Shown piece by piece: positions 1 to 2,339 of a DNA stretch of 10,570 nt. The DNA is from a virus. The notes beneath the pieces were generated by a model. The model saw nothing but the letters and a program-made list of their open reading frames with translations, made no database searches and had not been told where the DNA came from. The DNA is taken from IMG/VR virus record IMGVR_UViG_3300031625_000826. The stretch is one strand, 5' to 3'. Both the position numbers and the translations under genes were made by a program. The first letter of the stretch is position 1; each line of letters opens with the position of its first letter.

Positions 1-791
1 TCTTCTTTATTGTCTTCATCGGTGCGAGGAGAAATCCCCAAGTCTTCAAAAACTTCATCCATTGGGATCAATTCGACAAGCCCCAAATCAAGTTCTTCGA
101 CTTGTTCTTTGAGTTCTTCTACAAACTCGTCTCTTTGATCTGGAGGACCATGAAAGCTAATGTCAAAATAAATGGAATCAATAATATCCAACAAACTAAA
201 GTCACATTCGCTTGTTAAGAGCTTGTAGTTCTTCAGTTTAGGGTGTTTTTTAAGCCGATAAACCTCAACCTTAGCATTAAGCACCAACTTGAGATGAGCA
301 AATTGGTTAAGAGGGGAAGCAGACACAGAATATTTTTCTATGCGGCCCACAGCTTGCTCAAATCCACTTTCAGCACTAGCAGCGGCTTGATCTTCTGCTG
401 TCAACGGTAAGCTAACACCGTGAAATTCTGGTGTCATTCCAAAGTTGGTGTAATTGCTGGTTTTGAGATAGTCAACAGCCCAACAGACTTCCAAATGATC
501 CATTTTGTCGTTTTCATCAATGATAGCTGGTTTATCTAACTCATTGTGAAAATCGTCTATGTTGCTGCACCATGTGTATTGGGAAATGAGGAACGTGAGG
601 ACTTCACTTTTGCGAACAAAGTCCATGATGTGCCAGAGGGTAGTATCTGGGTCAATTTCGCAATAAGTTCGAAGGTGAGAAAGAACTGTTGGGTCAGTCG
701 CTTCCATTAGTTCTTCTTCTTGTTCTTCGGTATCCGGGTTCCACTGTGCCACCATAAGTCCATCAGGTGTTAGTGTAACTTTCTCAGCCAT
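1..791 (-). CDS. Hypothetical protein, 5' portion only; the gene continues past the left edge of the window. N-terminus MAEKVTLTPDGLMVAQWNPDTEEQEEEL..., open for 263 codons to position 1.
   Basis: The minus-strand frame is open from the ATG at 789-791 down to position 1. An AAGGAA Shine-Dalgarno-like sequence lies 8 nt upstream (TAAGGAACAAAACTG-ATG). It is absent from the ORF track only because no stop codon falls inside the window. The acidic, Glu/Asp-rich sequence matches no family I recognise. Confidence 0.65.
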   Translation of the reverse strand, partial: MAEKVTLTPDGLMVAQWNPDTEEQEEELMEATDPTVLSHLRTYCEIDPDTTLWHIMDFVRKSEVLTFLISQYTWCSNIDDFHNELDKPAIIDENDKMDHLEVCWAVDYLKTSNYTNFGMTPEFHGVSLPLTAEDQAAASAESGFEQAVGRIEKYSVSASPLNQFAHLKLVLNAKVEVYRLKKHPKLKNYKLLTSECDFSLLDIIDSIYFDISFHGPPDQRDEFVEELKEQVEELDLGLVELIPMDEVFEDLGISPRTDEDNKE

Positions 792-810
792 CAGTTTTGT
801 TCCTTAAAAG

Positions 811-1058
811 ACACCATATAACTCCCGTAAGCAAAGTTTTGTTCTATGTCTACATTTATCTCTCCACTTTGGAGGGCCGTGTATTATCACTAGCCTGCAC
901 CAACCCGACCATTATAGTGTCGCTACACACACTAAGTCTGTTTGGCTTGCACGCATCGTGGTTCAAACGAGCAATTTGCTCTCCCACAAGGAGCGAATGT
1001 GCCTTGACTTTCCTCTAACTTCAAATGAAGCCAGCGTAGACTCGGAGTTATATGGTGT
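811..1058. repeat. Perfect 15-bp inverted repeat (811-825 ACACCATATAACTCC and 1044-1058 GGAGTTATATGGTGT) enclosing a 218-bp non-coding spacer.
   Basis: The arms are exact reverse complements, read directly from the sequence. The spacer has no ORF of 60 aa or more on the coding (minus) strand. Read on the minus strand it contains a TATAAT hexamer (916-911) and a 6-1-6 palindrome GAGCAA-T-TTGCTC (969-981). Confidence 0.6.
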
Positions 1059-1138
1059 TTCAATTCCTAAAAACGCATGGGCGACAATACCATTTCGTTC
1101 TGAAGTTGACCGTTTTCGAAGGCGTTGAGCTGTATTCT

Positions 1139-1273
1139 TCAAAGAATCTGGACGAAGCCATTCTTCTCTTCATCGTATTTTTCTCTTTTATCTCTGGAAA
1201 AGAGAGTCCACTTGGTTGTCCCCCAGATAGCTCCGATAACGAAGTATCCAACGGCTCCGATGGCGACCCACAT
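1139..1273 (-). CDS. Putative small single-pass membrane protein (44 aa if started at ATG 1273; 73 aa if started at TTG 1360, which would overlap ARH by 29 nt).
   Basis: The sequence has a hydrophobic stretch, VVAWLWHNPMWVAIGAVGYFVIGAIWGTT, followed by a charged tail, KWTLFSRDKREKYDEEKNGFVQIL. No convincing RBS precedes either start. Alternative ORFs overlap on both strands, so coding status is uncertain. Confidence 0.3.
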   Translation of the reverse strand: MWVAIGAVGYFVIGAIWGTTKWTLFSRDKREKYDEEKNGFVQIL

Positions 1274-1331
1274 TGGATTATGCCACAGCCAAGCGACAAC
1301 ATTGAAGATGGCGTATTTGTGTGAAAAAGAA

Positions 1332-2339
1332 TCACACAAATTGTTCAACGAAACGTTCAATTAGTTCATGGAGTTCTTCTTTCTTTTGAACTCCATCGAT
1401 TAGTTCTGTCGGGAAAATACTTTTCCCATGCAAAGCCCCAATCATTGAAGCAAACATTGAACCATTTGTGTCCGTATCGCCGCCTGCGTTGACTACATTA
1501 TACAGGCCCTCGATTGTTTGATCTTTCAAAAAATGAGCATATGTGAAAGGTAGGCTGTGGTAAACATAACATCCACTTGCCGACTCAAACAGGCGATCTT
1601 TTTTATCGGATTCAAATCCGAAAAGAAGATTAAATCTCTCCCGTAGAGAATCTTCTTTTTTGGTTAATGGTGGGTCAAGCTTAGCATGTTCAACGAATCC
1701 TTCAACGTAAGCGTGGTCGACAATTTCGTCTATGAAGGCATTTTCATCAAATTCTTCTGGCTGAAAAGCCAAACAGTGTTGAATAGCTTGAGTATGAGCT
1801 ATTGCTGCGTAAGCCGACATATCTGTGTAATGACTCATCGCAGAAAATTGAACTATTTTTTTGTAAGATGGATCACTTGTATTTGGAATACCGACCATAA
1901 AGTCCCAAATCGCAATCGGAGCGATTTTCATTGGGACGCCATTTCCAGTTCCTCGATTAGGATTATCAGTAATCCCTGATTCAGACCAATGAGCACCATC
2001 TTTTAATTTGCGAATGGACTCTTGAGTAGAATAACCCCAACCTTCTACGGACTCTGCCATTGCCAGCGTGTGATACTTAGCGATGGCATCCATGTCAAAA
2101 TCATTTGCTTCAAGCAAGGCTTTAACAACAGCAAAGGAAAGATGTGTGTCATCAGTCCAAAAACCTAAAGGCTGATCGTTAAACCACTTATGCCCAAGAG
2201 GTTGTTTGTATTCGGTGACTCTGGTGTGGATGTCTGCAATCTTTTCAGCAGAGTATCCTTCGACAGGTGCCCCAAGAGCATCGCCTACCACGATTCCCCA
2301 CAAGCAGCCACGTATTTTGTCTTCAATTGGTATTTGCAT
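1332..2339 (-). CDS. ADP-ribosylglycohydrolase family protein (ARH/DraG-like), 335 aa.
   Basis: N-terminal GCLWGIVVGDALGAPVEG and C-terminal GGDTDTNGSMFASMIGALHG are the two signature metal-binding motifs of the ADP-ribosylglycohydrolase fold. The ORF ends in an ATGA-type junction region. Confidence 0.85.
   Translation of the reverse strand: MQIPIEDKIRGCLWGIVVGDALGAPVEGYSAEKIADIHTRVTEYKQPLGHKWFNDQPLGFWTDDTHLSFAVVKALLEANDFDMDAIAKYHTLAMAESVEGWGYSTQESIRKLKDGAHWSESGITDNPNRGTGNGVPMKIAPIAIWDFMVGIPNTSDPSYKKIVQFSAMSHYTDMSAYAAIAHTQAIQHCLAFQPEEFDENAFIDEIVDHAYVEGFVEHAKLDPPLTKKEDSLRERFNLLFGFESDKKDRLFESASGCYVYHSLPFTYAHFLKDQTIEGLYNVVNAGGDTDTNGSMFASMIGALHGKSIFPTELIDGVQKKEELHELIERFVEQFV

Follow-up and report, generated by a model that had tools for sequence, protein, structure and literature searches.

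The stretch of viral DNA considered here, IMG/VR record IMGVR_UViG_3300031625_000826, is 10,570 nucleotides long (the whole of it is called the window below), and all its long open reading frames (ORFs) are carried by the minus strand. Between positions 792 and 1138 an initial annotation had seen a non-coding gap bounded by an inverted repeat, perhaps holding a structured RNA, a regulatory region or a small mobile element. What lies there, on the minus strand from 811 to 1058, is almost certainly a homologue of bacterial-type ribonuclease P (RNase P) RNA rather than a non-coding gap. The part of the gap outside the repeat is not featureless, as it holds the remnant of a membrane-protein gene; nor is this the only long non-coding stretch, since 9711-9986 is also free of ORFs and holds a tRNA-like gene. 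The elements of the locus are as follows, those of the RNA being given in its own 5′ to 3′ order.

811 to 1058, minus strand: gene for the RNase P RNA, about 248 nt when counted from end to end of helix P1; its catalytic domain is of bacterial type A, its specificity domain vestigial
1044 to 1058, minus strand: 5′ strand of P1, ACACCAUAUAACUCC, second arm of the inverted repeat; perfect 15-bp complement of 811-825, the pairs of P1 covarying
1036 to 1041, minus strand: 5′ strand of P2, GUCUAC, pairing with 848-853 (GUAGAC)
1015 to 1034, minus strand: hairpin P3, CUGGCUUC-AUUU-GAAGUUAG, 98.5-100% paired with 6 of 7 pairs compensatory, also present in the minimum-free-energy (MFE) fold
1002 to 1015, minus strand: conserved region I (CR-I), GAGGAAAGUCAAGG, matching the Rfam consensus GAGGAAAGUC; the 5′ strand of P4 is 1002-1010, with a bulged U at 1007
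992 to 996, minus strand: 5′ strand of the P6 pseudoknot, UCGCU, complementary to AGCGA (920-924) of the P17 loop
953 to 998, minus strand: vestigial specificity domain between the strands of P5, 44-46 nt where bacteria have about 150
984 to 988 with 957 to 961, minus strand: helix Sa, covarying
969 to 981, minus strand: hairpin Sb, noted at first as a 6-1-6 palindrome, covarying
947 to 952, minus strand: 3′ strand of P5 (950-952, with 999-1001) and J5/15 adenines 947-948; GCAA is conserved and P5 covaries
899 to 946, minus strand: P15-P16-P17 arm, with P15 943-946/899-902, P16 935-938/907-910 and P17 930-933/916-919
903 to 906, minus strand: L15, GGGU, part of the same arm
875 to 895, minus strand: extra peripheral hairpin, from the MFE fold
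862 to 874, minus strand: P18-like peripheral hairpin, from the MFE fold; Rfam labels the second hairpin of the homologues P18
854 to 861, minus strand: J18/2 (CR-IV), AGAUAAAU, aligning to the Rfam consensus AGAugAAUG and invariant in seven sequences derived by synteny
827 to 847, minus strand: J2/4 and CR-V, AUAGAACAAAACUUUGCUUAC, with the 3′ strand of P4 at 829-836
811 to 825, minus strand: 3′ strand of P1, GGAGUUAUAUGGUGU, first arm of the inverted repeat, from an inverted-repeat search and the fold; 5 nt separate its end from the Shine-Dalgarno (SD) sequence of the next gene
789 to 805, minus strand: SD AAGGA (801-805) and start codon (789-791) of a gene for a 276-aa conserved protein, which follows the RNA in the clade
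1107 to 1360, minus strand: decayed remnant of a gene for a membrane protein of about 260 aa, found by tblastn with intact proteins

The covariance search against Rfam that the initial annotation had proposed gave, at relaxed thresholds, a single match in the gap: the bacterial RNase P class B family (RF00011), on the minus strand from 1049 to 823, with 49.8 bits and an E-value of 2.5e-11. The alignment spans the entire model. Agreement with the consensus lies in the 5′ and 3′ parts, that is P1, P2, P3, GAGGAAAGUC, the P15 arm, AGAUAAAUG and ACAAAAC..GCUUAC, and for the specificity domain the window offers 17 nt where the model has about 155 positions; the alignment thus shows that this replacement accounts for the low score. 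The type A family, RF00010, separately matches homologues of the RNA (L011 at 46.3, L009 at 43.7, L017 at 50.5, L257 at 61.5 and L342 at 64.3 bits). A dedicated covariance model, R1, was trained on six syntenic relatives only, the window being left out; it has 238 positions and 45 base pairs, runs from P2 to the 3′ strand of P4 without P1, and does not model the P4 and P6 pseudoknots. It matches the window at 1044..827 on the minus strand with 108.2 bits (E 1.2e-34), and finds one copy there. The MFE fold of the minus-strand RNA reaches -85.6 kcal/mol, compared with -66.0 +/- 4.5 for shuffled sequences (z = -4.3), a value equalled by none of 200 shuffles. As for the inverted repeat, an inverted-repeat search bore out that its arms at 811-825 and 1044-1058, 218 nt apart, are perfect over 15 nt, where about 0.003 such pairs would be expected by chance in the window (10,570 positions x 300 spacings x 4^-15). 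The suggestion that these arms close a structured non-coding RNA proved correct: they are helix P1, lengthened to 15 bp.

The architecture is that of an RNase P RNA in all but one of its parts. P1, P2 and P3 are nested at the 5′ end, P2 and P1 being closed by the 3′ end; P4 forms from CR-I and CR-V with its bulged U; the P15-P16-P17 arm is present together with the P6 pseudoknot, made between the loop of P17 and the strand 3′ of P5. GGU stands in the P15/16 internal loop (CGGGUU, 902-907) and the J5/15 adenines are in place (GCAA, 947-950). The L15 GGU is the motif that pairs with the 3′ RCCA of tRNA, and adenines 947-948 match A248 of the Escherichia coli RNA in position. The catalytic domain is therefore complete: P1-P6, P15-P17, P18, the bulged U of P4, the J5/15 adenines, the L15 GGU, J18/2 and J2/4. 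What the RNA does not have is a specificity domain made of P7-P12 (with P13/P14), CR-II and CR-III.

Divergent homologues, described below, allowed the helices to be followed through compensatory change. Alignments guided by the model were used, as MAFFT alignments including the window had misplaced its 5′ part, and the pairs of P4 and P6 were entered by hand for the counts. With 7 sequences (alignment A6) 98.3% of cells are paired and 30 of 58 pairs are compensatory, slid controls giving 35-47%; with 11 sequences (A8) the values are 96.5% and 39 of 58 (controls 31-44%), and with 47 sequences (A10) 96.4% and 47 of 58, the latter in 672 cells (controls 32-44%). For each of the three, none of 500 shuffles matched the observed pairing values. 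Among the 47 sequences the two pseudoknots absent from the model behave as the rest, P4 being 97.3% paired with compensation at 6 of its 8 pairs and P6 96.5% paired with compensation at all 5. P2 is paired in 98.9% of cells, and in the window it differs from the GUUGUC/GACAAC of the clade at 3 of 6 pairs, each fully compensated; P15, P16 and P17 are 90-99% paired, with 3 compensatory pairs per helix. An alternative CUU/GAG helix proposed by RNAalifold instead of P6 was, by eye, broken in the window and in L020, and P6 was retained.

GAGGAA and the bulged U of P4 are 98-100% conserved in the 47 sequences, as are GCAA in J5/15 and ACA-AA in J2/4; the majority of the sequences were retrieved without recourse to any of these motifs. 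CGGGUU does not vary among the seven members obtained by synteny alone and aligns to the Rfam consensus CGGGUa. At every column that is at least 90% conserved in the family the window has the conserved base, so that we are dealing with an intact gene, not a relic. The smallest members are pared down further: both peripheral hairpins are missing (L257, L252 and L255 in alignment A8), and P3 is down to 3 bp.

In place of the specificity domain, which normally reads the elbow of tRNA, the family has a stub made of helix Sa, a conserved internal loop (GGAG / CGUUNGNAC) and the apical hairpin Sb; in the window the loop reads GGGAG / CGUUUGAAC and is conserved. The stub measures 39-55 nt in 33 of 47 homologues and 44 nt in the window. 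The longer regions of other members (65-155 nt) were considered as surviving specificity domains and rejected: they are expansions of Sb, not P7-P12, they bring no higher Rfam score, and no motif of the CR-II/CR-III type (GGUAAGAGC-type) was found in these members. In two of the family's loci (L301 2320-2595 and L307 809-1037) the expanded stub hairpin holds hairpins resembling a T-arm, CAGGTTCAAATCCTG and TAAAGTTCGAATCTTTA, as if a fragment of tRNA had been inserted. That the stub loop still touches the tRNA elbow is speculation.

This anatomy also accounts for two signals that had been read as regulatory. TATAAT is indeed present on the minus strand at 916-911 (the plus strand reads ATTATA at 911-916), yet it belongs to the internal loop that separates P16 from P17, a conserved element reading CUAUAAUGG or CUAUGAGG in homologues, and cannot be upheld as a -10 box. 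The palindrome GAGCAA-T-TTGCTC at 969-981 is real as well, not as an operator but as hairpin Sb, which covaries (GAGC/GCUC, GGGU/GCCC and GACU/AGUC in homologues). Neither a sigma-70-like promoter nor an intrinsic terminator was found in 700-1450.

The family extends far beyond the clade of the window. Two gapped motif scans of IMG/VR returned 7 and 67 stretches, of which R1 confirmed 6 and 48 respectively, at 36-139 bits, on contigs of up to 518,809 bp. Run on 185,579 GTDB genomes, one per bacterial or archaeal species, the first pattern returned 11 stretches, none confirmed; as candidate members they were rejected, being coding DNA and one ordinary RNase P RNA. While blastn of a single homologue against phages yielded chance matches only, blastn with 23 concatenated family members against GenBank phages found the RNA, as confirmed by R1, in five records, none of which annotates it. 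Three are uncultured huge phages: LR756501 and LR756503, of 735,411 bp each (R1 128.5 bits), and LR745206, of 634,780 bp (R1 68.3 bits); in all three RF00010 has no match at E <= 0.001. The other two are cultured: Stenotrophomonas phage vB_SmaS-DLP_6 (KU682439.2; R1 52.6 bits, RF00010 54.7 bits), where the RNA, at about 105,783-106,007, is 18 nt upstream of a tRNA-Arg gene, and a Microbacterium foliorum phage of 191,968 bp (R1 29.8 bits, RF00010 64.3 bits), where it exactly occupies the interval between two tRNA-Arg genes.

Proximity to tRNA genes is the rule. A tRNA gene lies within 100 nt of the RNA in 26 of 53 viral loci, typically at 9-25 nt, and within 1 kb in 36 of them; all tRNAs in the stretches of those 53 loci share the strand of the RNA, in arrays of up to 38 tRNAs. 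The family, whose members range from 187 to 280 nt, is thus large and found mostly within same-strand phage tRNA arrays. Among the smallest members seen here, at about 187 nt, is that of L257, 187 nt including an 8-bp P1, which sits in a 28-tRNA array 2 nt after tRNA-Cys and 5 nt before tRNA-Leu. Many of the tRNAs in the arrays of L271, L257, L294, L282, L314 and L313 end in the discriminator base, one or two C's, then U or A. Other RNAs keep company with the family. On L255, a 105-kb viral contig, a GOLLD RNA (RF02032, 151.6 bits, above threshold) occupies 5662-6168, in the same tRNA-rich region as the small RNase P RNA and 2 kb from it. In DLP_6 a strong match to permuted transfer-messenger RNA (tmRNA; 136.8 bits) at L341 827-1100 (about 102,792-103,065 of the record) falls where the record annotates a hypothetical protein only; together with the RNase P RNA it makes at least two unannotated RNA genes in the tRNA region of this phage.

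How does this RNA compare with what is known? With the bacterial type A RNA (rnpB, RF00010, M1 of E. coli) it has in common the order of helices, P1-P2-P3, P4, P5, P15-P16-P17/P6 and P18, and the strings GAGGAAAGUC, GCAA, CGGGU, AGAU(G/A)AAUG and ACAGAA..GC(C/U)UA; the best Rfam matches of the homologues are to RF00010. It differs in the stub of about 40-55 nt that stands for the P7-P14 specificity domain with its CR-II and CR-III, in length (187-280 nt against about 350-400), and in being encoded by phages, often within tRNA arrays. The phage RNA descends from the bacterial type A RNA and probably works like it. Loss of the specificity domain and a similar size recall type T of the Thermoproteaceae (Pyrobaculum, RF02357), described as the only natural form devoid of this domain and as confined to that family (PMC7191817); loss of P12 in RNase P RNA has been treated elsewhere (PMC8172020). 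Type T, however, is built on an archaeal core, acts together with several archaeal proteins and is the sole RNase P RNA of its cell, whereas the core of the phage RNA is bacterial, with P6 and the L15 GGU, and this RNA presumably comes in addition to the host enzyme. No archaeal core was found in it, and its best match in the RNase P clan of Rfam is bacterial A/B, not RF02357. The reduction of the specificity domain is therefore convergent with that of type T, not a mark of shared descent.

Closer in design are the catalytic domains engineered from the E. coli RNA (Eco CP RPR, the 'mini' P RNAs), likewise devoid of the specificity domain; they need a P6-like contact and can do without P18 (PMC5839562), and the phage family keeps P6, frequently without P18. 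These are laboratory deletions of lesser efficiency, whereas the phage RNAs are natural, maintained, and endowed with a conserved stub loop. An RNase P-like RNA has also been proposed in camelpox and other orthopoxviruses; it is virus-encoded too, but the candidate shows partial similarity of secondary structure and no processing of pre-tRNA (PMC3001073), where the phage RNAs show significant matches of sequence and structure together, covariation and the elements of the active site. Phage T4 makes species 1 and 2 RNAs (rnaC, rnaD), small stable RNAs encoded on the same strand within its tRNA cluster; as degenerate relatives they were rejected, R1 with filters off scoring no higher than 5.7 bits anywhere in the tRNA region of T4. 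In a 2024 review of RNase P, phages figure only as sources of substrates (PMC11143913), and the full-text literature searched, which leaves out most subscription journals, yielded no account of an RNase P RNA encoded by a phage; there is a small but appreciable chance that an earlier description exists. To our knowledge the camelpox RNA, which is inactive, is the only viral RNase P-like RNA in the literature.

Taken on sequence grounds, the RNA of the window probably acts as a ribozyme that processes the 5′ end of tRNAs, and 5′ maturation of the precursors of the phage's own tRNAs is its likely role. It would be excised from a longer polycistronic transcript, no promoter or terminator having been seen around it, and would fold with its 15-bp P1 as a clamp. 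It would then assemble, probably with the RnpA protein of the host, the binding surface of RnpA being located within the catalytic domain that is retained. The complex would cleave the 5′ leaders of the pre-tRNAs of the phage and free the tRNAs from polycistronic transcripts; in L257, 5′ cleavage of the next tRNA would at the same time set the 3′ end of the RNA. Sudden expression of the tens of tRNAs of an array would burden the RNase P step, and the gain during infection would be extra RNase P capacity, or tRNA maturation independent of the host enzyme. Such a scheme has precedents, in that the catalytic domain of the E. coli RNA, on its own, cuts substrates in dependence on a P6-like contact, P18 becoming dispensable once the specificity domain with its partner P8 is gone (PMC5839562), and in that the type T RNAs of Thermoproteaceae are active without that domain (PMC7191817).

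A contrary possibility is that the RNA is catalytically dead and serves as a decoy or sponge for host RnpA or pre-tRNAs, stopping tRNA maturation in the host. The loss of the domain that recognizes the substrate and the scores under the Rfam threshold would fit, and the camelpox RNA, itself inactive, has been discussed as a possible decoy (PMC3001073). A decoy, however, needs neither the bulged U, the J5/15 adenines, J18/2, the L15 GGU nor P6, all kept across 47 divergent sequences, nor a position on the same strand within the tRNA arrays of the phage, and the isolated bacterial catalytic domain is active in vitro (PMC5839562). We consider this explanation improbable.

The immediate surroundings of the RNA invite another explanation, in which it is the cis-acting leader of the 276-aa gene. 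The 3′ arm of P1 stops 5 nt short of the SD, no terminator separates the RNA from the gene, and seven related genomes have the RNA immediately upstream of it. The arm had been placed 20-35 nt upstream of the ribosome-binding site, with the suggestion that long-range pairing gates translation; the figure holds as a distance to the start codon at 791, the distance to the SD (805-801) being 5 nt. For the 276-aa protein 13 relatives were found, 32-100% identical to it. Six further lineages (L009, L011, L015, L016, L017 with its duplicates L018/L019, and L020) have, directly upstream of its homologue, a gap of 260-280 nt that carries a clearly homologous RNA, and in L012/L013, L014 and L021 the protein is present without the RNA. 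These latter cases speak against a leader, as does the wider family, most members of which lie between tRNA genes, not before a protein gene, and are not flanked by the 276-aa protein; moreover, conservation falls on the positions that make up the RNase P active site. A long P1 that gates the ribosome-binding site is accordingly very unlikely.

On its other side the RNA borders a gene in decay. Intact membrane proteins of L009, L011, L012, L016 and L020 match the remnant in tblastn with 55-67% identity (E 1e-21 to 3e-26). The 73-aa ORF at 1139-1360 on the minus strand, initially taken as a gene, corresponds to residues ~50-105 of the membrane protein, and a frame-shifted piece at 1107-1166 to residues 101-120. 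In L009, L011, L016 and L020 the membrane-protein gene stands between the RNA and a glycohydrolase, and the ADP-ribosylglycohydrolase that flanks the RNA is found on eight near-identical marine metagenome contigs. The segment 1062-1360 is thus a decaying gene next to which the RNA gene was retained. A protein-coding reading of 792-1138 was considered and rejected, the ORFs there being short on both strands and the sole conserved coding signal being the remnant at 1107-1360. Instead of the remnant, gene callers predict 90 aa encoded by the opposite strand (1052-1324), an ORF that runs into P1 and is probably spurious. The helicase genes beside the locus (L001 14878-17355; L011 13124-16525) contain inteins in some lineages only, seen as faint matches to LAGLIDADG and intein-splicing domains.

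The genome around the locus has the look of that of a large marine phage. Its relatives include a 169,795-bp contig (ERZ26661968 NODE_17) and a Tara contig of 65 kb. On the minus strand, 5372-8152 codes for a 926-aa protein with the shoulder and repeat domains of the major vault protein (PF11978, PF17795), 39% identical to ORFs of the huge phages LR756501 (735 kb) and LR756500 (462 kb); beside the vault-like genes of these 735-kb and 462-kb phages no RNA was found, the copy of LR756501 lying elsewhere in its genome. The best match of the neighbouring helicase, at 49%, is in LR756511, a 595-kb phage. Neighbouring proteins match PHROG families, and inteins and free-standing HNH genes are present. 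Contig L271 shares the right end of the window and extends past it. At least 10 tRNA genes lie on it (Tyr x2, Leu x5, Ser x3), in the orientation of the RNA, from about 4-5 kb beyond the end of the window; with the tRNA-like gene of the window, the phage therefore has substrates of its own. The array at L271 54-2433 consists exclusively of tRNAs with a long variable arm, and a similar Ser/Leu/Tyr/Cys block occurs in L253. Two tRNA-Leu-like genes, at 9981..9878 (minus strand) in the window and at L271 3997-4103, with anticodons UAG and UAA, have hairpin insertions of ~21-22 nt (AGAGGUUAAGCAACCUCAUAAU, AGGGUUAGACAACCCGAUCGU) between positions 33 and 34 of the anticodon loop. The Rfam tRNA model gives them 42 and 37 bits, ARAGORN misses them, and the insertions are by far too small to be group I introns.

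Could the contig be cellular, the RNA being the streamlined rnpB of a reduced genome? No capsid or terminase gene was met within the stretches retrieved around the locus, which leaves a small doubt on the viral nature of the lineage; one relative comes from the 0.1-0.22 um Tara size fraction, which speaks for a virus but also holds ultra-small cells. Neither was the lineage of the window found in IMG/VR by the probes used: an exact 18-mer of the window is absent from it, the 276-aa protein finds no counterpart in either IMG/VR or GenBank phages, megablast of the whole window has none in GenBank phages, and some 230 loci with the 15-mer GAGATAAATGACAAC in IMG/VR and the metagenome collection were all attributed to chance by nhmmer. 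Against this, the neighbouring proteins match huge phages best and PHROG families besides, free-standing HNH genes and inteins are present, ribosomal or other housekeeping genes are absent from more than 60 kb, the tRNA array is limited to Leu, Ser and Tyr, and the family, with no confirmed member in the GTDB genomes, has clear homologues in cultured phages. A cellular origin thus appears slightly less credible still than a leader. As for a miniature inverted-repeat transposable element or other insertion with 15-bp terminal repeats, which a perfect repeat bounding a unit of about 250 bp beside a decayed gene had suggested, it is practically dismissed by the single copy of the 248-bp unit in the window without flanking direct repeats (target-site duplications had been proposed as the sign to look for), by its orthologous position across related genomes, by arms that vary between genomes yet remain complementary through compensation, and by an interior that is an RNase P RNA.

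Returning to the RNA as a phage RNase P RNA that matures tRNAs, several points weigh against this interpretation. The 49.8 bits of the window RNA fall below the gathering score of RF00011, which is 97, and homologues reach 38-64 bits in Rfam where RF00010 has its gathering score at 100. CR-II and CR-III, the elements of the specificity domain that normally bind the T-loop, are absent, so that binding may be weak and unspecific unless a cofactor helps, and RnpA-like ORFs were not found near the RNAs, in the stretches retrieved, by a weak tblastn search with an E. coli sequence. Phage tRNA genes mostly do not encode the 3′ CCA (in the L271, L257, L294, L282, L314 and L313 arrays), and the L15 GGU contact would therefore need CCA to be added first. 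That AAACAG, CGGGTT and AGATAAATG do not vary among the IMG/VR members is partly a matter of ascertainment because these were search patterns. Lastly, in the clade of the window the RNA precedes a protein gene and is not adjacent to tRNAs, this clade having moved the RNA gene away from them, and some relatives (L012, L014) keep the 276-aa protein without the RNA.

A wider proposal, which we put forward as tentative, is that large phages possess a structurally distinct class of RNase P, made of a catalytic domain and a conserved mini-stub, that would render their tRNA maturation partly or wholly independent of the host. That the internal loop of the stub, or a protein of the phage, would then substitute for the specificity domain is an equally tentative idea. 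Possible reasons for such a class are that infection inactivates or overloads the RNase P of the host or its RNA, or that dense arrays with spacers of 2-25 nt, and tRNAs with insertions in the anticodon loop, need a relaxed or altered recognition of the elbow.

RNase P RNA is one of two universal ribozymes and is regarded as a cellular and organellar gene. The phage RNAs are a natural counterpart, of bacterial type, to the minimal archaeal type T, and may be seen as a natural experiment on the purpose of the specificity domain. Falling under the Rfam thresholds, they are missed by annotation pipelines, and the family explains unannotated gaps within phage tRNA arrays. As two cultured phages, DLP_6 and the Microbacterium foliorum phage, carry the gene, the finding is directly testable. 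A family of phage RNase P RNAs would add the 5′ processing of tRNA to the translation-related functions of large phages.

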